Sequence record: ON528725
DNA from: Shigella phage ESh15
Direction: 5' to 3' (one strand)
Length of the DNA stretch: 64,000 nt
The notes under the pieces are model-generated. The model saw only the letters and a program-made list of their open reading frames with translations, was not told the origin of the DNA and did not search any database. Below, piece after piece: positions 1,668 through 16,242 of the stretch. Positions within the stretch are counted from its first letter, which is position 1. The number at the start of each line of letters is the position of its first letter. The translations under genes were made by a program, and so were the position numbers.

Positions 1668-1694
1668 ATATACCTCTTGGTTAGATATTAGTAT

Positions 1695-2276
1695 TTATAA
1701 CAACCCTGTCAAATCATTCCAATGCTTCCGGCATAATGACACGTATCTATCGGTATCACCAATTTCAATTTGACTGCCATCTGTAATTGGAAGTCCGTCT
1801 TCCGTGACTCTAGCTACCATTGTGGCCTTTTTACCACAATGACAGACACCTTTAAGTTCAACAAGCTTATCGGCAATAGCCATTAATGCTTGAGAACCTT
1901 CAAATAGATTACCTTTAAAATCTGTTCGTAGTCCATATGCCATTACTGGCACATTGTATACGTCAACAATACGACTAAGTTGATACACCTTTTCAGTAGT
2001 TAAGAACTGAGCTTCGTCAACAAATACACAGTGAATATCCTTTTGTGCCGCAGCCCATTTATAGAATTCAAAGACATCCATATCTTCGGTAATTATATTG
2101 GCATCCTGACGAATACCAATACGAGAGACTATTTCACCTTTTGAATCACGAGTATCAATAGCCGGTTTAAGAACTAATACACCCATGCCACGTTCTTTAT
2201 AGTTATGTGCGGCAGTAAGTAATGAAGCAGACTTACCAGCGTTCATAGCGGCATAGGTAAAAATTAAACTAGCCAT
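1695..2276 (-). CDS. tk: thymidine kinase
   Basis: 193 aa, P-loop AMNAGKS, zinc-ribbon CHCGKKA...CRKH; T4 Tk length. Confidence 0.9.
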   Translation of the reverse strand: MASLIFTYAAMNAGKSASLLTAAHNYKERGMGVLVLKPAIDTRDSKGEIVSRIGIRQDANIITEDMDVFEFYKWAAAQKDIHCVFVDEAQFLTTEKVYQLSRIVDVYNVPVMAYGLRTDFKGNLFEGSQALMAIADKLVELKGVCHCGKKATMVARVTEDGLPITDGSQIEIGDTDRYVSLCRKHWNDLTGLL

Positions 2277-2285
2277 AAGAGTCCC

Positions 2286-2468
2286 TTATAGTGAATTCAC
2301 ATAGTCAATGAGTTCTTGTTCTTTCCTGTCAAATGATTCCAACAATGCTTGATATTCTTCATCTGTTAAAGGAGCATATTCATCGTACGCATTGGTGGCT
2401 GCTTGCTCATCCAATAGGTCATGGATAAGTTCGAACAGTTTAGCTTTTTCTTCTTTAGTCAATTTCAT
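2286..2468 (-). CDS. hypothetical acidic protein (60 aa)
   Basis: ATG at 2466-2468; tk.1 position. Confidence 0.45.
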   Translation of the reverse strand: MKLTKEEKAKLFELIHDLLDEQAATNAYDEYAPLTDEEYQALLESFDRKEQELIDYVNSL

Positions 2469-2959
2469 TTAGGTTCCCAATCAACAATCACAATTTCTAG
2501 TTTAGTGGAATACGTATCTAAAATCTCTTCGATGACATCCCAGTTTCCACCACCAATACCTGCACCAATTCTTGGCATATAAATTACAGGCTTTGTTATC
2601 TTATTCTTTCCGAATTTATTTAATTCTATTATACAATTCATTAAAGCAGAGTACTCAAAATTAGGTCCCGGCTCAAACTGTGTATAAAGATTAAAGCAAT
2701 AAGCTTTATGGGTCTTAAAATATTTTTCATAAACCGAATAAGACCCGAGTTTAGACTCGTCTCCGAATTCGGTTTGAAGTTTATCGGCTTCCAGAATTTT
2801 TGGATAAGCCTTTGCTAATTGACCTGCTACACCAGCGCCCATTGTATGAAAACAATTACACCCATGAGCAATATTATTACCTTTAGAAAACAGGGCGACA
2901 ATATCGCCCTTGATATAGTTTTTAATCACTTGCTGCAAGTCCTCTAGTATAAGAGTCAA
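2465..2959 (-). CDS. macrodomain-like protein (putative ADP-ribose binding or hydrolase)
   Basis: motifs N-x-x-x-MGAGVAGQL and P-R-IGAGIGGG match the two glycine-rich loops of macro domains; first codon is TTG at 2957-2959 (GGTGGA SD), alternative GTG at 2927-2929. Confidence 0.55.
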   Translation of the reverse strand: MTLILEDLQQVIKNYIKGDIVALFSKGNNIAHGCNCFHTMGAGVAGQLAKAYPKILEADKLQTEFGDESKLGSYSVYEKYFKTHKAYCFNLYTQFEPGPNFEYSALMNCIIELNKFGKNKITKPVIYMPRIGAGIGGGNWDVIEEILDTYSTKLEIVIVDWEPK

Positions 2960-3269
2960 CTAGACGGTCCACCATAGAATTGCATGCTGCCTTATCTTTA
3001 GGTTCCGCCACCGAGCATTCTAATATTTGCCATTTTTTATAGTATCTTTTAATTAAGGTAGACGCCTTGAACCTACTAGACGCCCCATCTTTTTCTCCGT
3101 CTTTATATGCGTATAACAATTTTTGTGAAAAATCTACTTTACACTCTTGACTTTTACCACAATAATCAGACGCCGTTCTGTTTGTATACTCCGTTACATC
3201 AGTATATGTAGTATTAGCAAGAGCGTTAAATGAAACCAAGCCAACTATTAAAGCTAACATTTTGGTCAT
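2922..3269 (-). CDS. small secreted/periplasmic protein with signal peptide (vs position)
   Basis: 115 aa, N-terminal MTKMLALIVGLVSFNALA signal peptide, ATG at 3267-3269. Confidence 0.5.
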   Translation of the reverse strand: MTKMLALIVGLVSFNALANTTYTDVTEYTNRTASDYCGKSQECKVDFSQKLLYAYKDGEKDGASSRFKASTLIKRYYKKWQILECSVAEPKDKAACNSMVDRLVDSYTRGLAASD

Positions 3270-3808
3270 TCTTTTATTTCCAGTAGTTTATTTGATTTAA
3301 GGTAATTAGCCTTTTCTAGGACTTCAGAAGCATATTTACTTCCAGCACTTGTCTTCCATCCCGCATTATATGAGGATATGGCTTTCCTTATATCCCCGTT
3401 ATGTATATTTAACCAATAAGAAAATTCGATATAAGCCCATCTTGCTGAATTAGACCGCTTAGATAGCATTTTCTTAATTTGGGCATCAGTCATATTATAA
3501 CCAAGCTGGTTAATTCTTGCCCTCATTGTTGGTAGATAGTTTTGGAACATTCCATACGCATGGTGACCTTTCTTATCTTTAAGATTAATACCGGCGGATG
3601 ATTCTTGCCATAGTATTGCGGCCATTATGTATCCAAGTCCTTTCTTATGCATATTTTCATGCGTTTTAAATTTTCCGTCCTTAGAAAACTGTTCCCCAAA
3701 CTGATAAGCATAATTCAAGTTATCGAGTTGGACATTACTAAAAGTATGCTCGGAGCTATGTGCTGATAACGAAAGAGCAAATAGACCAGCGAGTAGTGCT
3801 TTTCTCAT
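3266..3808 (-). CDS. periplasmic lytic-transglycosylase-like (SLT domain) protein
   Basis: 180 aa, signal peptide, catalytic-type E-S-S motif (ILWQESSAG) and AYNAG-like SYNAGW motif; GAGGT SD. Confidence 0.6.
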   Translation of the reverse strand: MRKALLAGLFALSLSAHSSEHTFSNVQLDNLNYAYQFGEQFSKDGKFKTHENMHKKGLGYIMAAILWQESSAGINLKDKKGHHAYGMFQNYLPTMRARINQLGYNMTDAQIKKMLSKRSNSARWAYIEFSYWLNIHNGDIRKAISSYNAGWKTSAGSKYASEVLEKANYLKSNKLLEIKE

Positions 3809-3816
3809 GTTTACCT

Positions 3817-4275
3817 CTAGATTTTAATCACTGCTTTAGAAGCTTTTCCTGGTAGTCGTTTACTGTTAATAATAGCCATTCTGCATTGAAGAGTCTTCAT
3901 TTTGAATGCCGGATTTTCGCGACAAACTGTAAGTCCTAACCAAAGATTTCCATCAGTTATTTCTAAACGGCCTGGGCGATATTCGACACCTTCGACAAAA
4001 TCTTCATCAACATCTGGACGTGCCGGCATTGATAAAAATTCTGCAACTTCTTTAACATGATTTTTTACTTTATGAAATAATTCAAAAACGTAATTCTCAT
4101 CTATTTCTCTCTGGATGGCACGATCTAAGAGATGTTGAGAATACTTGATATGAAAGCCTGGTAGTCCAAGAGACTTTGCAGCATCTTTTATACCGGCATT
4201 TATTTTGCGGAACTCCGTTTCAAAGATTCGACGGAGTTTATTACGACGGATAAAAACTTCCGAATTGATAGTCAT
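3817..4275 (-). CDS. regB: RegB site-specific endoribonuclease
   Basis: 152 aa; N-terminus MTIN(S/T)EVFIRRNKLRR and C-terminus CRMAIINS(K/R)RLPGKASKAVIK match T4 RegB as recalled. Confidence 0.85.
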   Translation of the reverse strand: MTINSEVFIRRNKLRRIFETEFRKINAGIKDAAKSLGLPGFHIKYSQHLLDRAIQREIDENYVFELFHKVKNHVKEVAEFLSMPARPDVDEDFVEGVEYRPGRLEITDGNLWLGLTVCRENPAFKMKTLQCRMAIINSKRLPGKASKAVIKI

Positions 4276-4300
4276 TTTGATTTCTCCTCTAGTTGACAGG

Positions 4301-4332
4301 TCTATAGTAACACAACTAGAGGAGAAGTAAAC
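4301..4332 (-). promoter_or_regulatory. early promoter cassette upstream of regB
   Basis: gtaaac 4327-4332; -10 TACTAT from plus tctatagta 4301-4309; 12-bp inverted repeat including the SD. Confidence 0.6.
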
Positions 4333-4336
4333 TACT

Positions 4337-4546
4337 TTATTCTTGGAACGGTGTGAGTTTTCCAGCTATCGAACAAATTTCTACCATCGCAGGATAAAAC
4401 TCTTTCACTTGTTCAAGGCGCTGGACAGCGTACCGCATTTCGCCTTCTTCAAGACAAGCCGCCTGGTCATCGAGCAAATATTTGTGGTAACCTGTACAGG
4501 CTTCGCTAATGATACGTTGGAATTCTTGCAAACTTTCAATTTTCAC
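4337..4546 (-). CDS. hypothetical protein (69 aa), probable GTG start
   Basis: first codon GTG (plus cac 4544-4546) with GAGGA SD, overlapping upstream stop by 1 nt. Confidence 0.4.
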   Translation of the reverse strand: MKIESLQEFQRIISEACTGYHKYLLDDQAACLEEGEMRYAVQRLEQVKEFYPAMVEICSIAGKLTPFQE

Positions 4547-4812
4547 TAGTATTTTTCCTCGGGTCTAAATACTGCACGACAGGCCCACATGCTGGCTTCT
4601 TTTAGATGTTGCTTAGCGTACTTAAGAGCCTGCACTGCATCCATATCTTCTTTGGTTTGTTGCTCTGTTTCATTTTCTTTCAAGATATATGCTTCTTCAA
4701 TCAGAGCATCAAACATCAATCCAAGACGGACTTCAGCATCTTTAATAGCGTTCACTTTACTAATTTTATCATCGGTATGCGGCTTGTAGCCTTTGATGTC
4801 TTCAATTGACAT
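4546..4812 (-). CDS. hypothetical small helical protein (88 aa), vs.4-like position
   Basis: ATG at 4810-4812 with GAGGA SD; track ORF extends further at a non-SD codon. Confidence 0.45.
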   Translation of the reverse strand: MSIEDIKGYKPHTDDKISKVNAIKDAEVRLGLMFDALIEEAYILKENETEQQTKEDMDAVQALKYAKQHLKEASMWACRAVFRPEEKY

Positions 4813-5026
4813 AAGGAATTTCCTCATCGGTGGCAAGGTCATATTCGACCAATTGGATAGGCTCATTAATACCATATCCACGTACAGTGATATCAGTTGT
4901 CGGATAGTTTCCAGTAATATCACCCATTCTAAATGCTTCAATGAATGATTGCTCGCCTGAGCAACTAAACCAGGCGGCAAAACATTTTAAAACATCTTCA
5001 GACCCTTCTATAATCAATTTAGCCAT
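4802..5026 (-). CDS. hypothetical acidic protein (74 aa)
   Basis: ATG at 5024-5026 overlapping the upstream stop (TAATG). Confidence 0.45.
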   Translation of the reverse strand: MAKLIIEGSEDVLKCFAAWFSCSGEQSFIEAFRMGDITGNYPTTDITVRGYGINEPIQLVEYDLATDEEIPYVN

Positions 5027-5388
5027 TATAGACTCTCAGTAAAGGTACGAGCGATAACGTCGCGCTGCTGTTCCGGAGTCAGAGAGTTAAAGCGAACTGC
5101 ATAACCGGATACACGGATGGTCAGTTGCGGATATTTTTCCGGATGCTTAACTGCATCTTCCAGAGTTTCGCGACGCAGAACGTTAACGTTCAGGTGTTGA
5201 CCACCTTCAATTTTAACTTTAGGTTGATGTTCAATTTCAATTTCACGGGCATTCAAACCGTAGAAAATTTCCGGGTCTACAATAGCGTCTTCTTTAAAAG
5301 TCTTAGAGACAATAATCCGGGCTTGAGTACCGTCTTCAAAATAAATAGTGCCTTTGTGTGTGCCTTCAAGAATTTGATATGCTTTCAT
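5026..5388 (-). CDS. autonomous glycyl radical cofactor, GrcA/YfiD-like (T4 Y06I-like)
   Basis: 120 aa; C-terminal glycyl-radical motif RVSGYAVRF; C-terminal ~65 aa look the same as E. coli GrcA as recalled. Confidence 0.8.
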
Positions 5389-5394
5389 ATAACC

Positions 5395-5703
5395 TCAATT
5401 AGAAAATAAATTTATCCAAGTTTTTTCTTTAATCAAAAATGGGTCGGAATTAAACGCCATTAAACTTTGAGTGGTTAATCCCTTAAATGGCCCATCAATA
5501 AATTCCATTTTGAAATGCGGAATACTAGTCATCAACCGTGCATTAGGAGCAGTACAAAGAACCTGCTGCCCTGCGAACGGACCTTTAGTCAAACGATATC
5601 GTTTAGGTTTAAAATGGTAAATCTCGTAATTTTCTACAAGAGCCCTTTTATTGCATACTGGGCTGTTATAACAATACTCAAAAACTTCAATAGTGGTCAT
5701 CAT
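5395..5703 (-). CDS. hypothetical protein (102 aa)
   Basis: ATG ATG at 5698-5703; overlaps upstream stop. Confidence 0.5.
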   Translation of the reverse strand: MMTTIEVFEYCYNSPVCNKRALVENYEIYHFKPKRYRLTKGPFAGQQVLCTAPNARLMTSIPHFKMEFIDGPFKGLTTQSLMAFNSDPFLIKEKTWINLFSN

Positions 5704-6239
5704 TGCATTCCAATCACAAAAAATTGAGGACGAGCATTACCGCCTATGCAATATTTGCTTTTGCAACAGTGTTGGACTGTTTTAATATGTACATTGTAAA
5801 TCTTATCCATATCAGGAGCTTTAATAGGCTCGTCAATTATATACAGAATACGAGAAAGCGTTAATCCACGGAATTTAGAACCTTCATTGCCAATAAAACT
5901 ACGAACAGAATCAGTAAATAAACGGAATCGAATATCGTCGCTAGAATAACGAGAAAATTCTTTTTTAATGTTGCCAACAGAAATTTTAGCATAAGCTGAA
6001 GTATTAGAAAGAACAATAACTGTTCCACCATCATACAGCCAATTAACAGCGAAATTAGTTACTGCGGTCGATTTACCTGATTGTCTGCCGCCGTCTAAAC
6101 GAAGTGTACAGTACTGCTTGAGTACGTCTTCAAATGGTGGGACATAACCGTTCTTACAAATTTCTTCTACTCTAGCATCAGAATGGTGTGTAAAAGCATT
6201 CATCAGGGATAGATAAGGTCCAGTTAAAAATGTTCTCAT
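5700..6239 (-). CDS. P-loop NTPase (Walker A/B) of unknown function
   Basis: 179 aa; Walker A GGRQSGKST, Walker B-like ILYIIDEP; ATG at 6237-6239. Confidence 0.6.
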   Translation of the reverse strand: MRTFLTGPYLSLMNAFTHHSDARVEEICKNGYVPPFEDVLKQYCTLRLDGGRQSGKSTAVTNFAVNWLYDGGTVIVLSNTSAYAKISVGNIKKEFSRYSSDDIRFRLFTDSVRSFIGNEGSKFRGLTLSRILYIIDEPIKAPDMDKIYNVHIKTVQHCCKSKYCIGGNARPQFFVIGMQ

Positions 6240-6412
6240 TTAGTTTCTCTTAAGGTTGGGGCCATTCCGTGGCACATGTTAGGTCCTTCGACTCGCTATG
6301 TAAACCCATTACCGCACTTGGGCTCGACCTTATTACAGGTTGGAAAAGGTACATCACTCAGAGGACTCGACGTTCGTGAGGAGAGGTTGCGTTTCCCTTT
6401 ATTAGGCAAGAA

Positions 6413-6742
6413 TTATACTCTAGGCTTTTGAGCTTGTTTGGTATTGGATTCCCACGCTGCTTTAGTAATTTTGTTAGCGGCATAGCCAAAGGCATTAGAT
6501 AGAACACCTTTAGAGTTGAATACATCCAATCCAATAAGTACACCGGCTGCGTTAAATTTAGGAGCAAAGTATGCATTAGTTTTAGAAAGAGCTTTTTTCA
6601 ATTCAGGGTCTTGAACCAAGCCATCAAAAACGCCTTTACCATTTACTTTATATGTTACTTTAGGATTTTTACCTTCTTCGATAGCAGCTTTCTGTTCCGC
6701 AGATAATGTAACTTCAGTGATAAATTCTTGATACGTTTTCAT
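6413..6742 (-). CDS. internal-protein (IP) candidate with capsid-targeting sequence
   Basis: 109 aa; N-terminus MKTYQEFITE matches the T4 IP capsid-targeting sequence; basic. Confidence 0.65.
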   Translation of the reverse strand: MKTYQEFITEVTLSAEQKAAIEEGKNPKVTYKVNGKGVFDGLVQDPELKKALSKTNAYFAPKFNAAGVLIGLDVFNSKGVLSNAFGYAANKITKAAWESNTKQAQKPRV

Positions 6743-6783
6743 ATGTTTCCTTTAAATGTAAATAGGCCTAAGTATAGGCCTTA

Positions 6784-7362
6784 TTAATTACCACGGGCCG
6801 CATTAGCGACGGCGTAAGCGTACTGAACATTAGCGTCTTTAAACGTACCTTTAGATGTATCTATTTCTGCCTTAAAGCCACCTTTAGCCATAACATCGGC
6901 AAATTCTTTACGGAAAGCCATTGCATCAAGACCTTTCCATGATGATTTATGCTTGGCAAATTCAAGACCAGCGTAGTTGACAGCTTTAGCTAATTTATTA
7001 TCAATAACCCATTTACCGGCTTTAGGCACAAACTTCGGGCCTTTTTGTTTAGAGAACAGTTTTAAATTCCAGCGACGAAGGTCACTGTCGGCTTTAACAA
7101 AAGCTGCGTCTAAGTTACTAGCAACAACATCTTCAATATGAGCAAATTTAAGTCCGTCAACTTCAATATTTAGATCGTTACGCCAGCGTAGTCCTTCCCA
7201 AGCGAAGGCTTTAAAATCAGAAGCCTTTGTAGCTAAGTACCGTTCAATAGGAGCTGTTTTAGGGTCAAAGCCGTTTCCGCCACGATAATTCCACTCGTCC
7301 TTATTAATGCCTTGAGCTTTTCCTGCAAAGGCCTCGGCGATAAATTCTTTATATGTTTTCAT
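6784..7362 (-). CDS. internal-protein (IP) candidate with capsid-targeting sequence (IPIII-sized)
   Basis: 192 aa; N-terminus MKTYKEFIAE. Confidence 0.65.
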   Translation of the reverse strand: MKTYKEFIAEAFAGKAQGINKDEWNYRGGNGFDPKTAPIERYLATKASDFKAFAWEGLRWRNDLNIEVDGLKFAHIEDVVASNLDAAFVKADSDLRRWNLKLFSKQKGPKFVPKAGKWVIDNKLAKAVNYAGLEFAKHKSSWKGLDAMAFRKEFADVMAKGGFKAEIDTSKGTFKDANVQYAYAVANAARGN

Positions 7363-7388
7363 TTTTGTTCCTATTCTTTTAATTTATG

Positions 7389-7703
7389 TTATTCTTTAGG
7401 GAAGTTTTTAGAGTATGCGTCATAAAGTTTATTACCGATGCGACGGAAGACTTTAGCTGCAAAACGGTTTTCAGGGTTTTTAATCATGATTTGCATCATG
7501 TAAGTTCCTGCATCCGAAAGAGCTTCTTCATAGTACCCGTTAATTTCTTTAAGAGTCCTACGTTTACCACCAGGACCATCAACAGTAATTTTCCATTTAC
7601 CTGTAGAAGTGCGGCTCGGTGGCTCAACTTGTTCAATCCAAATATAACCACCTTCAACGCGTTGGTTGGCGGATTCTGCAATAAATTCTTTATACGTTTT
7701 CAT
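7389..7703 (-). CDS. internal-protein (IP) candidate with capsid-targeting sequence
   Basis: 104 aa; N-terminus MKTYKEFIAE; early promoter cassette immediately upstream. Confidence 0.65.
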   Translation of the reverse strand: MKTYKEFIAESANQRVEGGYIWIEQVEPPSRTSTGKWKITVDGPGGKRRTLKEINGYYEEALSDAGTYMMQIMIKNPENRFAAKVFRRIGNKLYDAYSKNFPKE

Positions 7704-7733
7704 TTTTGTTTCCTTGTTTGTTTTGATAGAGTA

Positions 7734-7763
7734 ATTATACCATATTAATACTTAAGCGTAAAC
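7734..7763 (-). promoter_or_regulatory. early promoter (-35 GTTTAC, -10 TATAAT)
   Basis: gtaaac 7758-7763; plus attata 7734-7739 gives minus TATAAT. Confidence 0.55.
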
Positions 7764-7766
7764 AAT

Positions 7767-8027
7767 TTAAGCTTTACCGCCAGAAATAATTCCGAAGTTG
7801 TTAAAATCGTATCCAATATCGTCAACATCTACTTTAGGACTTGCTACAACATAAGCAATTTCACTACGTTTTGCATAGGTGTTGATTTCTTTACCATCGC
7901 CACCTAAGAAAGAATACCCATTACGTTTTAATGAGCCAAAGTCTTCCTCATCACCAATGAAAGCTTTAACTTTAAATTTTGGGTCTTTGGCATCTGCTTC
8001 AGTGATAAATTCTTGATACATTTTCAT
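7767..8027 (-). CDS. internal-protein (IP) candidate with capsid-targeting sequence
   Basis: 86 aa; N-terminus MKMYQEFITE; AAGGA SD. Confidence 0.6.
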   Translation of the reverse strand: MKMYQEFITEADAKDPKFKVKAFIGDEEDFGSLKRNGYSFLGGDGKEINTYAKRSEIAYVVASPKVDVDDIGYDFNNFGIISGGKA

Positions 8028-8033
8028 TTTTCC

Positions 8034-8447
8034 TTAGTAAATTGATTTACCATAGTATTTGTACCAAGTCGGACGTTGAGCAATTTTTTCATCTAAGCGT
8101 GCTTGACTTATCGCAATGGACGCTTCGGACGGGACATAATTATTACGAAATTCGGCAGGGATGTCGGAAATATCCTGGACAGTCGTGTCCTTGATTTTGA
8201 AACCACGTTTCAAACATTCAGCGATTAGCTCGATTTGGCGTAAACGTAAAAATTCGAGTTTGTCGTAAAAGAATGTTACGTGACCCTTGCCTAAGATAAA
8301 TGTTGGAGAGATTTTAAAATCCTTTACACGTTTACCGTTTTGAACATGTTTACGGACTGCACCAAATACGCGTGGTAATTCACGATACTCAGCCATAAGA
8401 TGTTGGTCGGTCAGTTCAGAAACAAGTGTTAAATTGATACGAGTCAT
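8034..8447 (-). CDS. denV: endonuclease V (pyrimidine-dimer DNA glycosylase)
   Basis: 138 aa from ATG at 8445-8447 (GGAGGA SD); [12 protein letters not shown]...AEYRELPR...WYKYYGK match T4 DenV as recalled. Confidence 0.9.
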
Positions 8448-8472
8448 AATTTCCTCCAAGTAGTTGATGAAT

Positions 8473-8504
8473 GTATAGTATCAAAACCCTTGGAGGAAGT
8501 AAAC
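8473..8504 (-). promoter_or_regulatory. early promoter cassette upstream of denV
   Basis: gtaaac 8499-8504; -10 TACTAT; 10-bp inverted repeat ttcctccaag/cttggaggaa pairs the denV SD with the promoter spacer. Confidence 0.6.
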
Positions 8505-8505
8505 A

Positions 8506-8787
8506 CTATTTTTCTGAAGCGCCTGAAATATATTTTTCAAGACGTTGTTTCATCAGCGAGCCGTTCTTAGCGATTTCTTCCGGTTTATCGCACATACGCA
8601 ACAACGCTTCAAGCTTAACGATATCACTGGTGCGCTCAAATTTGCGAGTATCTATCTTACTGGCAAGTTCAGAAATACGTGCTAATAGACTTTCAGCTTC
8701 GACCAAAGCTGCACCTAGCTTAGTTGCAAATGTGTCAGTAGCTTCGTTAAGAATAGATTCTGATAAAAATTCACTATATGTTTTCAT
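8506..8787 (-). CDS. internal-protein (IP) candidate with capsid-targeting sequence
   Basis: 93 aa from ATG 8785-8787 (ATGA overlap with e stop); N-terminus [10 protein letters not shown]; sits between e and denV where T4 has ipIII/ipII. Confidence 0.65.
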
Positions 8788-9272
8788 ATATACGCTTTCC
8801 AAGTTCCTGTTTTAAATGTTGAGATTACGCGTTTCGCGCGATTAGGTGTCTGACGATACCATTTAGATTGGGCTAGATTTACTGCCGCTTCGTCCCAACG
8901 TTTCTGTTGAAGCATACGAAGAGAATTAGTAAAACCGGCGACGCCTGCTACACCCATTTGGAAGACCATATTGACTAATGCACATCGACGAACTGCGTCT
9001 AAAGAATCATATACCGGTTTAAGTTTAGCATTACCCAAGATTCCGCGAACGGCTTTATCAACATCTTCATTAAATAGCTTTTCAGCCTCATCAAGGGTAA
9101 TTGTACCGTTGCATTTACGACCGATCATTCTGTCAAGTTCAGTTTTAGCTACGGCTAAAGACGGGTTCTTTGTTACCAAATGGCCTATGCCAATAGTCCA
9201 AAAGCCTTCGGTGTCTTTGTATAAAGTCAGTCTAAGACCTTCGTCATTACGAAGCATTTCAAATATATTCAT
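8784..9272 (-). CDS. e: lysozyme e (endolysin)
   Basis: 163 aa from ATG 9270-9272; MNIFEMLR(N/I)DEGLRL...TEG matches T4 lysozyme including catalytic E11 and D20. Confidence 0.95.
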
Positions 9273-9274
9273 AA

Positions 9275-9298
9275 TACCTCCCACGTTTATAGGAGGTA
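9275..9298 (-). promoter_or_regulatory. SD-sequestering hairpin in the e leader
   Basis: minus-strand uaccucc-10nt-ggaggua places the GGAGG of e in a stem; loop contains TATAAAC; same architecture as the known T4 lysozyme translational control. Confidence 0.5.
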
Positions 9299-9306
9299 TT
9301 TATTAC

Positions 9307-9765
9307 TTATAGGAGGGTAGTGAGCACCTTATATAATGATTTGCCCATCACATATTCCCATTGAGAAGGTTTAATTAAAGCGAATGCATCAAATTCAGGA
9401 ATTTGTCGTCCGTCTGGGAATGTATGATAGGAATTACAAACACTGTTTCTGAATTGCTCGTGCTCTACAGGGATGGTATATAGGAACAGATGAATATTCT
9501 TATTGTCTGAGTAATGATGTTCACCTAGGTCTTTCAGGAAGGCAGGGTCATATTGTGTAAACCCAGTTTCTTCTTCGCATTCACGAATAGCGGCTTCGAT
9601 AGGAGATTCGCCGGGTTCGACACGGCCTTTAGGAATATCCCACCGATGAGCTAAAGAACCTTTAGGACGAGAACCAGTTACACGCCCCATGAATAACTCT
9701 TTATCTTTTGTCATGAAGATAATACCGGCTGATAGTTCTTTCACTTTATTTTTCTTACTCATCAT
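9307..9765 (-). CDS. nudE: Nudix hydrolase NudE
   Basis: 152 aa; Nudix box GRVEPGESPIEAAIRECEEETG; immediately upstream of e as in T4. Confidence 0.8.
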   Translation of the reverse strand: MMSKKNKVKELSAGIIFMTKDKELFMGRVTGSRPKGSLAHRWDIPKGRVEPGESPIEAAIRECEEETGFTQYDPAFLKDLGEHHYSDNKNIHLFLYTIPVEHEQFRNSVCNSYHTFPDGRQIPEFDAFALIKPSQWEYVMGKSLYKVLTTLL

Positions 9766-9991
9766 CTCGGTCCCATGATTTGGCCATTAATTCGGACATA
9801 AATTCTTCAATGCGCGTTTCTTTAGATGGACTTTCACTATTAGAGACCGCAAGTTTGTAATCTGCAATAGGACTGAACAAATCAAGGTCCATATTAAGAT
9901 CGTCTTTGATTTTTTCTTCTGACACATCTTTATCATATGTGTACAGATAACTATCACATGATTCTGATTTAATGTAAATTGCTATACTCAT
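9755..9991 (-). CDS. hypothetical acidic protein (78 aa)
   Basis: ATG 9989-9991 with AGGAA SD, ATGA overlap with upstream stop. Confidence 0.45.
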   Translation of the reverse strand: MSIAIYIKSESCDSYLYTYDKDVSEEKIKDDLNMDLDLFSPIADYKLAVSNSESPSKETRIEEFMSELMAKSWDRDDE

Positions 9992-10479
9992 CTCAAATTC
10001 CTGCATTCGGTAATAAAACGTTCAACTTCATTATTCTTGGCCTTTATCTTGTCTTTACGTTCCTGTAAACTACTTTTAACAAGATTAATAATGATGCCTA
10101 TAGTACCTCCACCAATAATACCACCAATAATACTTACGATAGTAGATGCTAATAAGATAGCGATAATATCTGGTATGGCAAAGGCGCTTACTTTAGTACT
10201 AAAAAACCATACCGATGGTACAAATATAATCCATCCTGTTATCCATTGGCACTTATTGAAAAACTTTTCAAGCTCAGCTTGAGTTGTTCGTATTACTTCA
10301 TCGATAGGTTGATATCCATTAATGTATCTGTTCACAATAATACCTGCTGGCTGGTCGATTTTAAATTCTTGGCAAATACGTTTCACTAAGTAGGATGGAC
10401 ATCCTGTCCAATCCACTGAATAGTACGAAATACCTTCGTTGCCGTCGTCAATATTAGACCAATATGTTTTGTTAATCAT
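9988..10479 (-). CDS. hypothetical membrane protein
   Basis: 163 aa; Gly/Ile-rich transmembrane segment IIAILLASTIVSIIGGIIGGGTIGIIINLV; GGAAGG SD. Confidence 0.5.
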   Translation of the reverse strand: MINKTYWSNIDDGNEGISYYSVDWTGCPSYLVKRICQEFKIDQPAGIIVNRYINGYQPIDEVIRTTQAELEKFFNKCQWITGWIIFVPSVWFFSTKVSAFAIPDIIAILLASTIVSIIGGIIGGGTIGIIINLVKSSLQERKDKIKAKNNEVERFITECRNLR

Positions 10480-11165
10480 TACCAGCCTTCCATAGGGAAT
10501 TCCAGATAAACTTGAGCATTGACACGAATTTCATTAGTAATCTTTTTAACTCGGTCTGTATTACGAGATACACGTCCGAACCAACGCCATCCGTTACTAA
10601 TTGCACGAGAACCAGTGTGCCATGTTTGCCAATCAAACTGAAGAAGAGTACGGTCTGGAGCTTCCCATTTCTCTAGTTCACCTTTTTCAATTTTTTCGAG
10701 GACTTCTTTGTGCCACTGGCGATAGATAAGTTCGCCATCAGGAATCTGACTGAACTCTGCAGTTCCTGTTGCAAAATGAGTAGGACACACGTCAGCGTTA
10801 ACAAGACCAAGAATATGTTCAGAATGGTAACGAGGGTTGTCATAGTCAGGTTGTCCTGCAGTAATAAAGTGTTGACCAACCGGAATATCCGGGCGTGGTA
10901 CATCGTCATGGTGATAACCTGGTATAGCAGGGTACCAACCAGGCATCAGCATATGAACCCGAGAATCAAATACAACCTGGTCGGTGTTCCAATCATCTGG
11001 CAAGTTCATGATGAAGCTGCGAGTAATAGGACCGCCGTTATTATAAGCAAATTCTAAACTACAGTTGAAGAACATAGGCTCGTTCTTGATTTTATCATTA
11101 GAAATACCGCCGGCAAAACCACCTACTGCACGAGCTTGACTATTAAACACTTTAGAACTATTCAT
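10479..11165 (-). CDS. hypothetical protein (228 aa), His/Asp-rich
   Basis: ATG 11163-11165 with GAGGA SD; contains GYHHDD and HSEH clusters, function not assignable. Confidence 0.55.
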   Translation of the reverse strand: MNSSKVFNSQARAVGGFAGGISNDKIKNEPMFFNCSLEFAYNNGGPITRSFIMNLPDDWNTDQVVFDSRVHMLMPGWYPAIPGYHHDDVPRPDIPVGQHFITAGQPDYDNPRYHSEHILGLVNADVCPTHFATGTAEFSQIPDGELIYRQWHKEVLEKIEKGELEKWEAPDRTLLQFDWQTWHTGSRAISNGWRWFGRVSRNTDRVKKITNEIRVNAQVYLEFPMEGW

Positions 11166-11166
11166 A

Positions 11167-11472
11167 TTATTTTCCTCGACATTCTTTAATGAAATTTTCT
11201 AGATTGGTAGATTCAATAGCTTTTTTACGAGCTTCTGCATGTTCTTCTTCAGACAATTTACATTTATAATTAACCCAGACGTTATGGTCAAAACTAGTCG
11301 TGGCATATAATAACAAAGCCCCGACGAATAATAAAAACGGTGATAAGAATACAAAACCAGGAACACCATCCATATCGTAAGCCTTTTGTAATACTGCAAC
11401 AGAAAGAGTTGCGTAAAAAGGTGATGCAAATATTGTTAAAAGACCAATTCGGTTGGTTTCTGTTAATTTCAT
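11167..11472 (-). CDS. hypothetical membrane protein (101 aa)
   Basis: two predicted transmembrane helices; ATG 11470-11472 with GAGGAG SD. Confidence 0.5.
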   Translation of the reverse strand: MKLTETNRIGLLTIFASPFYATLSVAVLQKAYDMDGVPGFVFLSPFLLFVGALLLYATTSFDHNVWVNYKCKLSEEEHAEARKKAIESTNLENFIKECRGK

Positions 11473-11498
11473 AATATTCTCCTCATGTTTTAATAGGA

Positions 11499-11530
11499 CT
11501 ACTATAACATAGTCCTATAATTGTGTAAAC
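11499..11530 (-). promoter_or_regulatory. early promoter cassette
   Basis: gtaaac 11525-11530, -10 TATAGT, 9-bp inverted repeat ataggacta/tagtcctat. Confidence 0.6.
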
Positions 11531-11542
11531 AGTTTTGTGAAG

Positions 11543-12499
11543 TTATTTGAAAGGTTTTACCATATGGAAATTTTGTTTGAAACGTTTTACATAATCGTCA
11601 TGTCCTAAGCTTTGGTACATACTTACAACTTTGCTGTAGTTTTCCCAAGCGTATTCACGGAACCAGCCTGACGTGATTGAAGTACAGACCTTTTCAAGAG
11701 CCATCATAAAACTATCACGTGGATGGATTTTAAAGTCATTAGGAATCTGAGAACGTTCTAATGCTAGTACACATGATTCTTCGTATACACCGGCCAATTT
11801 GACCATTTCTGGTAATGATTCGAACTTCTCGCGTGAGGTCATGACTTCAGAACCATCTTTCATGTAAAACGTATAAGCAGGGCGGTCTGTTAGTGCAATG
11901 GCTTCGTGAATAGTATCATGATCGTATGTGTAGATGTCATCTTTAAAGAATGCGCTTTTAGAAGTGTCAAGAACCGGGTGAGCATAGTTCAATGTTTCTT
12001 TCTGGCGTTTAAGCATAATTTCAGTAAGTTCATCGTTCAGTGTAACACCTTTACCACGAAGATACTGAATATGGTTCATAGTCTTTAAAAAGAATGGATT
12101 ATTTTTCTTGAAACGATGAGACATCTTAATTGCAAGACACATCTCAGGAGTTGCCCAGTAAAACCCGTTCAAACGATCTTTAGTCAAATTTTTCTTGGCG
12201 TATTTTAAAAGGTCATAAGAAGACGTGAAATCTTCAGGAGTGAGTTCACCAACTAATTCACGGACATTAGTGATTGCCGGAACAATATATGCTTCAAAAT
12301 GAGTTTCGCGTCCATTATGGAAGCATTTGAAAACTTGGACATCAGGGTTATCTTGGTGAACATATACACCCATCATTTGATTTTTGAATGCATTCCAAGA
12401 ACCTTGGTCCGCAATAAAGTCCCAATCACTATTTTTGATAGCGCTAGAATCAATAAGGCCGTGATAGTGAAGTGCACGAGAACCAATAACTAACATCAT
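11543..12499 (-). CDS. hypothetical protein (318 aa)
   Basis: ATG ATG at 12494-12499 with GAGGA SD; N-terminal GS...DWD pattern weakly reminiscent of a nucleotidyltransferase. Confidence 0.55.
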   Translation of the reverse strand: MMLVIGSRALHYHGLIDSSAIKNSDWDFIADQGSWNAFKNQMMGVYVHQDNPDVQVFKCFHNGRETHFEAYIVPAITNVRELVGELTPEDFTSSYDLLKYAKKNLTKDRLNGFYWATPEMCLAIKMSHRFKKNNPFFLKTMNHIQYLRGKGVTLNDELTEIMLKRQKETLNYAHPVLDTSKSAFFKDDIYTYDHDTIHEAIALTDRPAYTFYMKDGSEVMTSREKFESLPEMVKLAGVYEESCVLALERSQIPNDFKIHPRDSFMMALEKVCTSITSGWFREYAWENYSKVVSMYQSLGHDDYVKRFKQNFHMVKPFK

Positions 12500-12524
12500 A
12501 ATAATTTCCTCAAATTTAGATTAC

Positions 12525-12764
12525 TTAAATTTCACGACATGCGATATTATATTCATCCCAGAGGTCATCATGTGAAGCCTCTACCAATGGAACGATTGTA
12601 CCATTTATGTCTTCATTATAAGGACAAATTGTACAGTGCGCATCTTCGAATCGGATGCCTTTGTGTTCAGATTTTTTATAACGCATATCGAATATCTTTG
12701 CAAACTTTTCACGAGTAATAGTTTTAGCAACTACTTCGGTTCCGATACTTTCGTAATAAATCAT
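12525..12764 (-). CDS. hypothetical Cys-containing small protein (79 aa)
   Basis: ATG 12762-12764 with GGAG SD; HCTICP motif. Confidence 0.45.
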   Translation of the reverse strand: MIYYESIGTEVVAKTITREKFAKIFDMRYKKSEHKGIRFEDAHCTICPYNEDINGTIVPLVEASHDDLWDEYNIACREI

Positions 12765-12790
12765 TGTGGACTCCATTTAATTTGATAGGA

Positions 12791-12822
12791 CTACTATAAC
12801 ATAGCCCTATCTTGTTGTAAAC
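12791..12822 (-). promoter_or_regulatory. early promoter cassette
   Basis: gtaaac 12817-12822; -10 TATAGT; inverted repeat with one mismatch. Confidence 0.55.
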
Positions 12823-12827
12823 TGTTT

Positions 12828-13025
12828 TTAGCAAGAATAACTAGATGATACCCAGCCTTGAACAGTAATACTATTATTTGATAACGAGATCGCGTCCTGG
12901 AGATTCAGACCTGCGTTATCTTCAATCCATAATGTAACTTCTTCGCGTTCTTCTGTTGCAATTTGGAACAGGTTTTCCAGAGCAGCTACTGCCGTACGTA
13001 CAGCACAATCTAATTCACGAGACAT
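12828..13025 (-). CDS. small protein, member 3 of tandem GWVSSSxxC family (65 aa)
   Basis: C-terminus QGWVSSSYSC; AAGGA SD junction identical in style to the two upstream paralogs. Confidence 0.5.
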   Translation of the reverse strand: MSRELDCAVRTAVAALENLFQIATEEREEVTLWIEDNAGLNLQDAISLSNNSITVQGWVSSSYSC

Positions 13026-13034
13026 ATTGTTTCC

Positions 13035-13307
13035 TTAGCAAGTGTGAGAAGATGCAACCCAACCGCCATCTTCAAGGCTCAGGTTGTAGTCGTATTGGTA
13101 AACGTCAGCCCATTCAGCATAGCCGTTTTTTGTACAACGTTCAAGATCGGCTTTAAGATGTCCTGGTGAATGATAGGTTCCACCCATACCATAAGCTGGA
13201 TACAAGTCAAATGTTGTGTTTTGTTTATTGGCAATTTCTTTGGCTGCCTCAATAGCTGCATAGATTTTTGCTACGGCTTCAGCCAGTTCGGTTTGTTCTT
13301 TAGACAT
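13035..13307 (-). CDS. small protein, member 2 of tandem GWVSSSxxC family (90 aa)
   Basis: C-terminus DGGWVASSHTC; internal YGMGGTYHSPG motif shared with member 1. Confidence 0.5.
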   Translation of the reverse strand: MSKEQTELAEAVAKIYAAIEAAKEIANKQNTTFDLYPAYGMGGTYHSPGHLKADLERCTKNGYAEWADVYQYDYNLSLEDGGWVASSHTC

Positions 13308-13316
13308 AATGATTCC

Positions 13317-13622
13317 TTAGCACAATGCAGAAGACGAAACCCAAGCACCTTCAGTAATAACGTAACCATTACCTTCACGCTTAACGTCGCCACCATTATT
13401 TTCAATTTCATTTTTCATCCACTGGGATACGATTTCACCCTTAGGATAATAAGTACGACCGCTACCATAATCACCTACAGAAAATGATACAGCATATTGG
13501 TCTGCGATCTTTGTTGCTTCTTCTTCGATACGTTCAGCTTGATTCAGAAGTTTATAAATTGCATCTGAAGCGGATTTGGCATCATTAAACTCTGGCACTT
13601 TAATTTCAATAATCTTACTCAT
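13317..13622 (-). CDS. small protein, member 1 of tandem GWVSSSxxC family (101 aa)
   Basis: C-terminus EGAWVSSSALC; internal YGSGRTYYPKG motif; AAGGA SD. Confidence 0.5.
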   Translation of the reverse strand: MSKIIEIKVPEFNDAKSASDAIYKLLNQAERIEEEATKIADQYAVSFSVGDYGSGRTYYPKGEIVSQWMKNEIENNGGDVKREGNGYVITEGAWVSSSALC

Positions 13623-13680
13623 TTTCTACATTCCTTAATAAAGTTTTCGATTGTTTCATTTTCACGTCTAGCTAGGAGTT

Positions 13681-13710
13681 CATTATAACTAATCATTTGA
13701 GAAGCGTAAA
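13681..13710 (-). promoter_or_regulatory. early promoter (-35 GTTTAC, -10 TTATAAT) for the triplet
   Basis: gtaaac 13705-13710; plus attataa 13681-13687; 17-nt spacer. Confidence 0.55.
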
Positions 13711-13720
13711 CAGCATAAAT

Positions 13721-14113
13721 TCAGTTAAGGCTTTTGCATCTTATCTCCTTAACGAATTCCATGGCTTCATTGTATTCATACTTTTTAACAGCTTCATCAT
13801 ACTGAGCTTGGGCTTTTGCGCACTGAACTTTCCATTCTCTTAATCGGGCTCTGTGATGACGGCCTTGGTGCCAATATCCTGCCCAATTAATAGGCATTAA
13901 TAAAAACGGTACAATAAGTGGTGCGACGAACATTAATGAAAATGCTGCATCAGACGATATAACTTCACTAGAATCTAAAACAGCTCCTATAATCATAAAG
14001 ATTAAAAATGCTAAAGCTAAAATAGGACCAAACAACACCTCATTAGGAATTAATTTACGTTTGTATTCGTATGCCCAGGGCTTAATTGGCATGTACAGGG
14101 TTGGCTTTGACAT
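13721..14113 (-). CDS. hypothetical membrane protein (~130 aa)
   Basis: two predicted TM helices; ATG at 14111-14113 (track start at 14143 is a TTG). Confidence 0.45.
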   Translation of the reverse strand: MSKPTLYMPIKPWAYEYKRKLIPNEVLFGPILALAFLIFMIIGAVLDSSEVISSDAAFSLMFVAPLIVPFLLMPINWAGYWHQGRHHRARLREWKVQCAKAQAQYDEAVKKYEYNEAMEFVKEIRCKSLN

Positions 14114-14684
14114 ATTCTCTACATTCCATAATAAATTGCTCAAGGATTAAATTGTTAGTGAAATTAGGACTAACAACCATAGTTTCATAAAGCGCATCAA
14201 TAGCACTTAAAGCATCAACTCTTTTAAGCAAAGGCTTGCCTTCATACATAGTTTCAGAATCTACGATTAGCGTAAAGTAATATTTTTTATTATCGACTAG
14301 AACTTCAGTATCGATATAAAACATGTTAGACCTTAAAAGCTTATCTCTAAAACCATAATAATCTTCAGAGCGTTCGCTGATATATTCCCATTCAGTGTTT
14401 AAACAACAAACAGACCATGTAGGAGCAACGAAATCAGTGAATCTAATATCATGGTCTGCAACTAGTTTAGCAATAGCTCCGATATCATGAATCATAATAC
14501 CTGGGGCTAATAAAGATTTTCTGCTATGGCTAGCCGTTTTCTCAGTAGTCTCATAAGAAGACGACCAGTACCATTTACGTCCGGTTGCAACATATCGTAA
14601 TGAATCAACTAAAGACGTAGGTGGATTTACCTTATCTCGGAACTCTTCGAACATTGAGTCAATATCATTATTTTGGTTTCGCAT
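14082..14684 (-). CDS. hypothetical protein (200 aa)
   Basis: ATG 14682-14684 with AAGGAG SD (track start at 14705 is TTG). Confidence 0.5.
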   Translation of the reverse strand: MRNQNNDIDSMFEEFRDKVNPPTSLVDSLRYVATGRKWYWSSSYETTEKTASHSRKSLLAPGIMIHDIGAIAKLVADHDIRFTDFVAPTWSVCCLNTEWEYISERSEDYYGFRDKLLRSNMFYIDTEVLVDNKKYYFTLIVDSETMYEGKPLLKRVDALSAIDALYETMVVSPNFTNNLILEQFIMECREYVKANPVHAN

Positions 14685-14703
14685 GTTAACTCCTTTATTA
14701 TCC

Positions 14704-14727
14704 AAAAAAGGAGGACCGGAGTCCTCC
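14704..14727 (-). terminator. rho-independent terminator
   Basis: minus-strand hairpin ggaggac-ucc g-guccucc followed by UUUUUU (plus A-run 14704-14709). Confidence 0.6.
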
Positions 14728-14735
14728 GTATTATT

Positions 14736-15329
14736 TTATTTCAAAGAGTTAATATATTCTTGTACATCAGCAGAAGTTGTTTCGACACCAGCTGGAGTGC
14801 CATTGAATGTTTCAACACGAGTCAGAGTGTCTTCGATATCAACCTTAGTCAGTGCAGCAATTTCGATTACATCATCGGCCGTAGAGATACCAAGGGCATT
14901 GGCTGCTCGAGTTTCACGAATGTATTCGAGTTTGATTGCCAGATTCTGACGAGCATCATCAAGTTCAACCACCTTACGAGCAATTTCAATTCGCATAGCG
15001 GCGTACCCGTCAGCTTTTGTATTAAGTTGTTCGGCTGTTCGACGATACAGAAGTCCAAGCTTAGCATGCATGGTAACATCTTGTCCTTCAGCCAGGAGCT
15101 TACGAATTTCACGTTCTTTAGAAGCGGCTTGCTTGTTCTTTTCATTAACAAGTTCGCGAATACGTTTTTCTTCATTAATAGATTTAACAGAAGCCGTTTT
15201 TAGTTCTTTGATTTGGGTAATCAACTTATCTGCGGCTGCGTTATACTGTTCTTCGACAGTCAGATTTTTAGCCATAGCAGTACCCAGTTTAGTGCGGATG
15301 AATTCAACAAGTTTCTTCAGTGTGTTCAT
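14736..15329 (-). CDS. coiled-coil protein of unknown function (~197 aa)
   Basis: ATG at 15327-15329; long heptad-like helical sequence; no catalytic motif. Confidence 0.5.
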
Positions 15330-15370
15330 ATTATTACCTTTCAATTGGTGGTTTATTATCCAACGAGAGC

Positions 15371-15400
15371 ATTATACTCTGCTCTCAAGAGTTTGTAAAT
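15371..15400 (-). promoter_or_regulatory. early promoter (-35 ATTTAC variant, -10 TATAAT in inverted repeat gagagc/gctctc)
   Basis: plus attata 15371-15376, gtaaat 15395-15400. Confidence 0.5.
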
Positions 15401-15627
15401 TATTTTTTAATCAAATTGACATAAAACTTAGCGTCTTCAGGGTGCATGCCTTCGCAGTATTCTTCAACCATGAACTTCTTAACAGCTTCATAAGGACCAC
15501 TCAGATTAAGCTCAGTTGTCCAAAACTTGGAATCTTGGGCTGAATCGATATGAACTTCAGGGTGTCGGTTGCGAATAACTTCTTCGGTGTATTCATAATC
15601 AACGACATCAATACTAACTTTAGCCAT
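15400..15627 (-). CDS. hypothetical acidic protein (75 aa)
   Basis: ATG 15625-15627 with GAGGAA SD. Confidence 0.45.
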   Translation of the reverse strand: MAKVSIDVVDYEYTEEVIRNRHPEVHIDSAQDSKFWTTELNLSGPYEAVKKFMVEEYCEGMHPEDAKFYVNLIKK

Positions 15628-15652
15628 TTTGTTTTCCTCTTGATTTGATGTG

Positions 15653-15685
15653 ATTACTATAACATAAACTTACTTAGATGTAAAT
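15653..15685 (-). promoter_or_regulatory. early promoter cassette (-35 ATTTAC variant)
   Basis: plus actata 15655-15660, gtaaat 15680-15685. Confidence 0.45.
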
Positions 15686-15838: not shown

Positions 15839-15865
15839 TTTGTTTACTCCACTGTAGTTGATAAG

Positions 15866-15900: not shown

Positions 15901-15906
15901 TTATTT

Positions 15907-16212: not shown

Positions 16213-16242
16213 AATATTCTCCTCATGTTTTGATAGGTCTAT

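Follow-up and report, generated by a model that had tools for sequence, protein, structure and literature searches.

The window analysed here, a 64,000-nucleotide stretch of Shigella phage ESh15 (sequence record ON528725), belongs to an RB69-like T-even phage (Mosigvirus). Five genes for internal proteins (IPs) lie on its minus strand at 6413-6742, 6784-7362, 7389-7703, 7767-8027 and 8506-8787, and the coordinates, strand and N-termini that a first-pass annotation had claimed for them were all verified. The array is flanked by e, nudE, denV and vs.8. Of the two polymorphic IP loci known in T-even phages, e-denV-vs.8 and ipI adjoining 57B, it represents the first. Within it, denV (8034-8447, minus strand), which encodes the pyrimidine-dimer glycosylase endonuclease V (Pfam Pyr_excise, E=4e-14; phrog_1183, E=3.5e-62), forms a fixed anchor gene. 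Exact copies of all five IP sequences are present in public databases, the variable cargo domains have matches in 90-496 phage genomes, and PHROG families annotated as internal head or virion proteins cover three of the five genes.

The gene upstream of denV encodes an Ip5 homolog of 93 aa (8506-8787, minus strand; phrog_3499 'internal head protein', E=1e-46). In the mechanical ORF list its frame runs to a TTG at 8802; the start that yields the capsid-targeting sequence (CTS) is the ATG at 8787, which overlaps the stop codon of the lysozyme gene e (ATGA). The protein is 89% identical to a VR20 product annotated as 'ip5, similar to bacteriophage T6 Ip5', the T6 name being taken via that annotation. 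Its mature part is 100% identical to RB69 ORF127c, a second site (LNE) is present at residue 15, and matches are found in 496 phage records.

Downstream of denV, the minus-strand gene at 7767-8027 encodes an 86-aa IP without an IpN name, which begins MKMYQEFITE and belongs to phrog_2667 'internal head protein' (E=1e-21). It is the equivalent of RB69 ORF125c (96%), itself annotated 'internal head protein', and of VR20 gp119 (74%), with matches in 214 phage records. The following gene (7389-7703, minus strand) encodes Ip10, a 104-aa protein beginning MKTYKEFIAE that shares a 90%-identity cluster with CAA84455, 'Ip10 [Enterobacteria phage Pol]'. It is 72% identical both to 'Ip10 [Shigella phage SP18]' and to VR20 ip10, and its matches extend to 189 phage records, among them Enterobacter phage CC31 at 48%.

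The gene at 6784-7362 (minus strand) encodes an IpIII ortholog of 192 aa, again beginning MKTYKEFIAE, which matches phrog_5341 over its full length (E=2e-117) and T4 IpIII with 94% identity over 178 aa (E=2e-125). The T4 counterpart is found upstream of denV, and here the gene is on the downstream side. The last cassette (6413-6742, minus strand; MKTYQEFITE) encodes a 109-aa CTS protein of the RB69 ORF123c family. This protein falls in phrog_3966, a family of unknown function, is 98% identical to ORF123c, and shares 38% with the CTS-bearing ORF054 found at the same position in the Dhakavirus AnYang. It has matches in 90 phage records, and all inspected records and cluster members label ORF123c family proteins 'hypothetical' or 'uncharacterized'. 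When the mature part was used in an exhaustive HMMER search, its own family was recovered together with an AnYang-like 119-aa CTS protein. Giant repeat proteins, which made up all the other hits, were rejected as homologs because a 28-bit match repeated 9-12 times inflates their E-values.

The shared N-terminus had been proposed to be the CTS of T4 internal proteins, and the experimentally important residues of that sequence are indeed all retained. M1, K2, Y4, E6 and F7 occur in all five proteins, whose leaders resemble the T4-type MKTYQEFIAE, and residues 8-10 (ITE, IAE, IAE, ITE and LSE) form the gp21 cleavage motif (I/L)-x-E in every case. Suppression and truncation experiments have mapped the CTS residues, with Y4 and F7 serving targeting and I/L8 and E10 gp21 processing, and in T4 these 10 residues are enough to package GFP, a nuclease and further foreign proteins (PMC9026906). 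In a six-frame search of the window, the pattern MK[TM]Y.EF matched six times against 0.0007 matches expected by chance; a relaxed pattern combined with the ORF list raised the number of CTS genes to seven, all at the starts of minus-strand ORFs. Mean pairwise nucleotide identity is 82% over codons 1-10, 36% over the 30 nt upstream and 31% over codons 11-20, the common block covering precisely the opening 30 nt of each gene. Upstream of it only the Shine-Dalgarno sequence is conserved. The earlier statement that the proteins diverge completely after residue 10 holds at the sequence level, with BLASTP comparisons giving E>1 and a direct comparison of the 109-aa protein with Ip10 giving E=0.2. 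PHROGs nonetheless places the genes at 6413-6742 and 7389-7703 together in phrog_3966; given the non-significant direct comparison, we rejected the 109-aa protein as an Ip10 relative.

Two additional CTS genes, overlooked in the first-pass annotation, lie at the second IP locus, which adjoins the 57B/57A homologs. The first (19342-19650, minus strand, ipI locus) encodes an Ip7-like CTS protein of 102 aa beginning MKTFKEFICE, 48% identical to VR20 ip7 and named 'internal head protein [phi25-307]'. The second (19714-20001, minus strand) encodes an IpI ortholog of 95 aa, 94% identical to T4 IpI, with a 19-residue propeptide ending in LTE. The position of this LTE at residues 17-19 agrees with where the solved chain of IPI* (PDB 2JUB) begins; that chain matches residues 20-95 of the ortholog (E=6e-42). 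The window also encodes the T4-type gp21 prohead protease that removes the CTS (49066-49707, plus strand; Pfam Peptidase_S77, E=3e-107) and the gp22 scaffolding protein, which forms the core that is the CTS destination (49741-50553, plus strand; Pfam T4_CASP, E=1.5e-89), as well as gp20, gp23 and gp24.

A common N-terminus of this kind might instead be a mere translation-initiation or mRNA element, such as a downstream box, with no role in packaging. In favour of this reading, all of the genes are short, with A-rich starts (ATGAAAAC) and Shine-Dalgarno sequences. Yet the conservation runs precisely from the ATG to codon 10, where gp21 cuts, and the interior of the CTS carries 12 synonymous codon differences while Y4, F7, I/L8 and E10 are invariant, which places the conservation at the protein level. 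The invariant residues are moreover those mapped by experiment within a segment sufficient for foreign-protein packaging, and two of the seven CTS genes encode 94% orthologs of proven packaged proteins. We therefore regard a pure initiation element as scarcely credible.

It is highly probable, in our assessment, that the five genes are cassettes of a hypervariable T-even IP locus, whose products are packaged, processed and injected, likely act against nucleases, and are exchanged by recombination at the CTS. Judging from the T4 experiments and the conserved sequence, the CTS would direct each protein, while the prohead is being assembled, to the scaffolding core of gp22. The gp21 protease would then cut after (I/L)-x-E at residue 10, or in Ip5 perhaps at residue 15, leaving a small mature protein that would remain in the head and enter the host with the DNA. 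Once injected, these proteins would most likely serve as stoichiometric and immediate inhibitors of host type IV nucleases of the GmrSD family, whose substrate would be the sugar-modified hydroxymethylcytosine DNA of the phages. Injected head proteins are met by host immunity before any other phage molecules.

The suggestion that such proteins are anti-defence candidates agrees with published data, in which Ip1, Ip2 and Ip3 each inhibit their own, distinct GmrSD type IV restriction enzyme, the target of T4 Ip3 being GmrSD-ECOR17 (PMC12373910). IpIII is required on ECOR17, and a CTS-less form expressed in the host is active. GmrSD-type inhibition by the IpIII ortholog is strongly implied by analogy, because it has been shown for T4 Ip1, Ip2 and Ip3. 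For Ip5, Ip10 and the 86-aa and 109-aa proteins, nuclease inhibition is only inferred. Variants ip4-10, assayed against 15 GmrSD groups in a screen with glucosyl-hmC phages, gave no reproducible inhibition (PMC12373910), a result that can also be read as support for a chiefly structural or physico-chemical role, in which the packaged proteins act as DNA counter-ions or scaffold fillers and not in anti-defence. The packaged DNA of T4 holds approximately 1000 embedded IP molecules, and three of the five mature proteins studied here are basic (pI 9.6-9.7, net charge +5 to +9), like T4 IpII and IpIII. Against this reading, the mature 86-aa protein has an acidic pI (4.95) and Ip5 a neutral one, and each T4 IP that has been tested proved to have a specific anti-restriction target. 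Viable phages that are 97% identical also carry almost any combination of the cassettes, an observation at odds with a required structural role. On balance we consider a mainly structural role unlikely, although it is the most serious of the competing accounts.

About 800 T-even genomes match this locus. It was compared in T4, RB69, VR20, AnYang, phi25-307, S143_2, phiC120, p000v, APCEc01 and W143, in which the order e ... denV ... vs.8 is kept with two to six CTS genes per genome. The RB69 cluster ORF123c-ORF127c has the same order as ours (e - Ip5 - denV - 86-aa IP - Ip10 - ... - vs.8) at 95-100% protein identity, and differs in that the present phage has IpIII as an additional gene between Ip10 and the ORF123c-type gene. 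Phage phi25-307 adds both IpIII and IpII, phiC120 is without Ip10, p000v is without ORF123c, and W143 is without ORF123c but has IpII. Equivalent clusters also occur in other Mosigvirus genomes and in Gaprivervirus (VR20) and Dhakavirus (AnYang).

Adjacent, co-oriented genes, two of which share a PHROGs family, could also descend from a single IP gene that was recently amplified in tandem at this site and whose copies then diverged rapidly, a lineage-specific expansion as the first-pass annotation had implied. Such an origin is very unlikely, as no two cargo bodies are significantly similar and close relatives differ by the presence or absence of whole cassettes. Each cargo also has its own orthologs, at 48-94%, in Tequatrovirus, Gaprivervirus, Dhakavirus or Enterobacter phage CC31, and the cargo families therefore predate this lineage.

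The 100 nt upstream of the gene at 6413-6742 share 96% identity with the sequence preceding IpII in phi25-307 and only 23% with that preceding the ORF123c homolog in the same phage, so that an IpII-type upstream region is joined to an ORF123c-type body. The recombinant junction falls in the 30 nt coding for the CTS (6713-6742, minus strand), where nt 18 is that of the IpII copy and nt 24 that of the ORF123c copy, placing the switch inside the CTS. Three junction types, one in this phage and two in relatives, combine an upstream region and a cargo from different reference cassettes with the switch across the CTS, and we therefore propose that cassettes are gained and lost through recombination between CTS repeats. 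The 30-nt CTS-coding segments would serve as direct repeats in homologous recombination, by which whole cargo cassettes may be deleted or inserted, the sequences being compatible with either direction; recombination of these repeats would explain why the array differs among otherwise 97%-identical phages. The chimeric junctions offer a concrete picture of cargo swapping via a 30-nt leader.

The five-gene array is real but already known, and it is no new kind of system. Comparison with T4 confirmed that its locus holds ipIII and ipII and no other IP gene. The further proposal that denV is followed by four additional cargo genes for novel injected proteins is not supported: one is IpIII, 94% identical to its T4 counterpart and relocated, and another is Ip10. 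Nor is the remainder of the array novel, since Ip5 is encoded upstream of denV, the same cluster is found in RB69 with related ones in other Tevenvirinae genera, and the locus has been published as one of two hypervariable IP loci. At least 10 IP variants, and later more than 30 (Comeau et al. 2007), have been described in T-even phages, and the names Ip4-Ip10 go back to Repoila et al. (1994, EMBO J), as quoted in PMC12373910, PMC9026906 and PMC2839356.

The proteins resemble T4 IpI, IpII and IpIII in their CTS, their (I/L)xE motif, their two loci, their mature size of 8-20 kDa and their mostly basic character, whereas IpII is missing from this phage and Ip5, Ip10 and the 86-aa and 109-aa cargos are without a T4 counterpart. 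They also resemble the Ip4-Ip10 group, with Ip10, Ip5 and an Ip7-like protein present and hypervariable cargo placed behind a constant leader at two polymorphic loci; they differ from it in the 109-aa (ORF123c) and 86-aa (ORF125c) families, for which no IpN name appears in the records inspected. It is a tentative possibility, which we would not favour at present, that these two families are injected inhibitors of targets outside the GmrSD screen, candidates being nucleases or sensors of Mosigvirus arabinosyl-hmC DNA, and that the 30-nt CTS repeat, in place of the promoter and stem-loop elements proposed earlier, is the crossover site.

Outside the T-even group, the P1 Dar proteins and the ejection proteins of P22, T7 and SPN3US/phiKZ are likewise head cargo that enters the cell together with the phage DNA and protects it from restriction at the outset of infection. 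They are unrelated to the IPs in sequence. The Dar proteins act against type I restriction-modification, follow a different incorporation hierarchy and are not known to carry a short, transferable leader like the T4 CTS. RB69-like phages are frequent in phage therapy and biocontrol work, and for these phages the locus provides a reasonable set of candidate anti-defence proteins that had been recognised before.

HMM and structure-prediction searches of the cargos, which the first-pass annotation had suggested as a check, supported the internal-protein assignment through the PHROG head families of three of the five genes and yielded neither domain relatives nor usable models. Pfam, NCBIfam and PADLOC gave no match for any cargo domain, and a PDB sequence search of the cargos returned no relatives, its sole match being IPI* for the IpI ortholog. 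Word-indexed homolog searches recovered very close relatives only (2, 11 and 3 clusters), and AlphaFold2 models of the 86-aa protein (mean pLDDT 53, from a 5-sequence alignment) and of Ip10 (47, from 3 sequences) were too poor for use. A literature search for virion proteome or N-terminal data covering these proteins in Mosigvirus found none.

No canonical late promoter (TATAAATA) occurs on the minus strand near the cluster, and supply of the proteins for head assembly would therefore have to come from read-through, from early or middle expression, or from near-consensus sites that precede e. The region's best promoter-like match is an early-type site upstream of Ip10 (7734-7762, minus strand; TTTACG-17-TATAAT with TG), which agrees with the consensus at 10 of 12 positions. 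As shuffled sequences contain at least as many sites of this kind, it counts as no more than a consensus match. Rfam reported nothing beyond two tRNAs, and no structure was found in the 173-nt gap at 6240-6412. A short GC-rich hairpin (6764-6781, minus strand) lies between IpIII and the 109-aa cassette, and the spacer that contains it precedes IpII instead in phi25-307.

The endonuclease V gene denV, recognised by Pfam Pyr_excise and phrog_1183, is flanked by five minus-strand genes that open with the 10-residue capsid-targeting sequence (CTS) of T4 internal proteins (IPs): 6413-6742 (109 aa, MKTYQEFITE), 6784-7362 (192 aa, MKTYKEFIAE), 7389-7703 (104 aa, MKTYKEFIAE), 7767-8027 (86 aa, MKMYQEFITE) and 8506-8787 (93 aa counted from ATG). 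The first-pass annotation had described five genes that share their first ~10 residues and then diverge, and both observations were confirmed. A six-frame search of the window returned six motif matches against 0.0007 expected by chance. Past residue 10 the five proteins show no detectable pairwise similarity (BLASTP E>1), with E=0.2 in direct comparison of the pair that PHROGs groups together (6413-6742 and 7389-7703). The common block corresponds exactly to the first 30 nt of each gene, where the genes average 82% pairwise nucleotide identity; the 30 nt before the ATG average 36% and codons 11-20 average 31%. The block contains 12 synonymous differences among the five genes, and upstream only the Shine-Dalgarno sequence is conserved, a pattern which argues that selection acts on the peptide rather than on an mRNA element.

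In T4, IpIII residues 1-10 suffice for head incorporation, with CTS residues 4 and 7 carrying targeting information and 8 and 10 processing information (PMC9026906), and foreign proteins can be carried by the CTS first into the head and later into the infected cell (PMC9026906; PMC3012670). Y4, F7, I/L8 and E10 are retained in all five ORFs. The window also encodes gp21, the prohead protease that removes the CTS (49066-49707, Peptidase_S77), the scaffolding core protein gp22 (49741-50553), portal gp20 and capsid proteins gp23 and gp24. By homology, the mechanism is well understood: the five proteins would be targeted to the head, cleaved after the CTS and injected with the DNA, and the earlier reading of them as injected cargos was right. 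The predicted mature products span 8-20 kDa. Three have a basic pI of 9.6-9.7, Ip5 (8506-8787) is neutral and the 86-aa protein is acidic (pI 4.95). We found no virion proteome in the literature that covers the five proteins.

The proposal that four of these genes are new additions to the T4 arrangement did not hold. The locus region is 97% identical to the Mosigvirus (RB69-like Tevenvirinae) phages S143_2 and phi25-307 and matches 830 phage records. One of the four (6784-7362) is IpIII itself (94% to T4, E=2e-125; phrog_5341), and two others of the five belong to named families. The protein from 7389-7703 shares a 90% cluster with 'Ip10 [Enterobacteria phage Pol]' (CAA84455) and has 72% identity to SP18 Ip10, and likewise to VR20 ip10. 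That from 8506-8787 is 89% to VR20 'ip5, similar to T6 Ip5', and its mature part is identical to that of RB69 ORF127c. The 86-aa protein (7767-8027) is equivalent to RB69 ORF125c and VR20 gp119, both labelled 'internal head protein' in RefSeq. The 109-aa protein (6413-6742) is 98% identical to RB69 ORF123c, whose family is 'hypothetical' in all records inspected, none calling it an IP (phrog_3966, 'unknown function'); a CTS-bearing homolog (38%) occupies the equivalent position in Dhakavirus AnYang. Among 50,697 phage records searched, the mature parts matched in 90 (109-aa protein), 189 (Ip10), 214 (86-aa protein) and 496 (Ip5) genomes. The same cluster was already deposited with the RB69 genome; the five-gene feature is real, but the phenomenon is already known.

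A relaxed pattern and the ORF list bring the CTS genes in the window to seven, all minus-strand ORF starts, once a second IP locus adjoining the 57B/57A homologs is counted. It comprises an IpI ortholog (19714-20001, minus strand, 94% to T4) and an Ip7-like protein (19342-19650, minus strand, MKTFKEFICE, 48% to VR20 ip7). PDB 2JUB (IPI*) aligns to residues 20-95 of the former, fitting cleavage after LTE19. All seven proteins are present as exact sequences in public databases (e.g. Shigella phage ESh15, Av-05, mar005P1).

Several annotation details accompany these genes. The Ip5 ATG overlaps the stop codon of the lysozyme gene e (ATGA, 8784-8787), which suggests that its translation is coupled to e. 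The 86-aa gene has its ATG 7 nt past the denV stop (7767-8034); in public data its 90%-identity cluster also takes in DenV proteins, and the IP region is labelled 'pyrimidine dimer DNA glycosylase' in at least one record, an annotation or clustering artefact. The deposited RB69 record (NC_004928) carries altered versions of three IP genes. In ORF127c, the Ip5 homolog (6923-7204), a compensated frameshift runs through the CTS, MKTYMNFYQNLSLNE, so that E6, F7 and E10 are lost and LNE15 is kept; ORF123c (5450-5779) carries E10A; and ORF124c (Ip10, 5848-6120) is shortened to 90 aa. Each of these changes is either a mutation of the lab strain or an error from old sequencing.

Layouts of the locus vary among phages. 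T4 has e-IpIII-IpII-denV-vs.8, RB69 and APCEc01 e-Ip5-denV-86aa-Ip10-ORF123c-vs.8, and VR20 e-ip5-denV-ip10-gp119-ip7-vs.8. AnYang has six CTS genes, as does phi25-307 (e-Ip5-denV-86aa-Ip10-IpIII-IpII-ORF123c-vs.8); the window and S143_2 share the phi25-307 layout minus IpII, phiC120 lacks Ip10, p000v lacks ORF123c, and W143 lacks ORF123c with IpII present. Plasticity of the two IP loci was earlier ascribed to promoter/stem-loop elements (PMC2839356). We typed the junctions of every cassette (45 nt upstream and 60 nt after the CTS) against phi25-307 and found three chimeric types: IpII-upstream with ORF123c body (the window at 6713-6742, S143_2 and phiC120), IpIII-upstream with ORF123c body (RB69 and APCEc01), and Ip10-upstream with IpIII body (phiC120). 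The 100 nt upstream of 6742 in the window are 96% identical to the phi25-307 IpII upstream region but only 23% to that of the phi25-307 ORF123c homolog, and inside the CTS (6713-6742) the IpII copy is matched at nt 18 and the ORF123c copy at nt 24. The CTS is the only sequence common to the exchange partners, which places the likely crossovers in or at the 30-nt direct repeats and indicates that the CTS-coding repeats are a putative recombination site for cassette reassortment. Such explicit evidence is mildly interesting.

Each of the T4 proteins Ip1, Ip2 and Ip3 inhibits a single type IV restriction enzyme of the GmrSD family, a different one in each case and without cross-protection, and ten more ip genes (including ip4-10) gave no reproducible interaction with 15 GmrSD groups (PMC12373910). 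GmrSD enzymes attack the DNA of RB69, which contains arabinosyl-hmC (PMC6024577). IpIII is needed on ECOR17, where CTS-less IpIII is also effective when host-expressed. An inhibitor role is therefore the best supported, in which injected cargos would act as immediate, stoichiometric inhibitors of modification-dependent nucleases. This function is strongly implied for the IpIII ortholog; for Ip5, Ip10 and the 86-aa and 109-aa proteins we only infer it. The cargo domains had no match in Pfam, NCBIfam, PADLOC or PDB, and AlphaFold models of the 86-aa protein and Ip10 were unusable (pLDDT 53 and 47, respectively). Residues 11-41 of the 109-aa protein (6620-6712), VTLSAEQKAAIEEGKNPKVTYKVNGKGVFDG, weakly resemble a giant bacterial repeat-protein unit, ITVTADAKSRAYGDANPALTYQVGGSGLVNG, at 28 bits/unit; the presence of 9-12 repeats makes the library E-values look stronger than they are, and the likeness is probably due to chance. 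The targets of non-T4 cargos, above all the ORF123c family, are mildly interesting.

The canonical T4 late promoter, TATAAATA, is absent from the gene strand near the IP cluster (1692-16978, minus strand). The only sites there carry one mismatch, e.g. TATAAGTA at 9311, upstream of e, whereas the perfect sequence occurs twice upstream of the T4 e gene; late-infection supply of the IPs is not evident from sequence. A somewhat GC-richer, 173-nt non-coding gap (6240-6412) separates the vs.8 homolog from the last IP gene; it has no Rfam match, is less structured than its shuffles (z +1.8) and holds an early-promoter-like TTTACA-17-TAACAT. The vs.8 homolog itself (5700-6239, minus strand; phrog_1488, unknown function) gives weak P-loop, AAA and terminase-N-like matches (Pfam E ~0.01) and a match to phrog_2, terminase large subunit (E=9e-7). 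At 17682-17836 the window has only two tRNA genes, Arg-tct and Met-cat, whereas T4 carries an eight-tRNA cluster with segB and two small RNAs.
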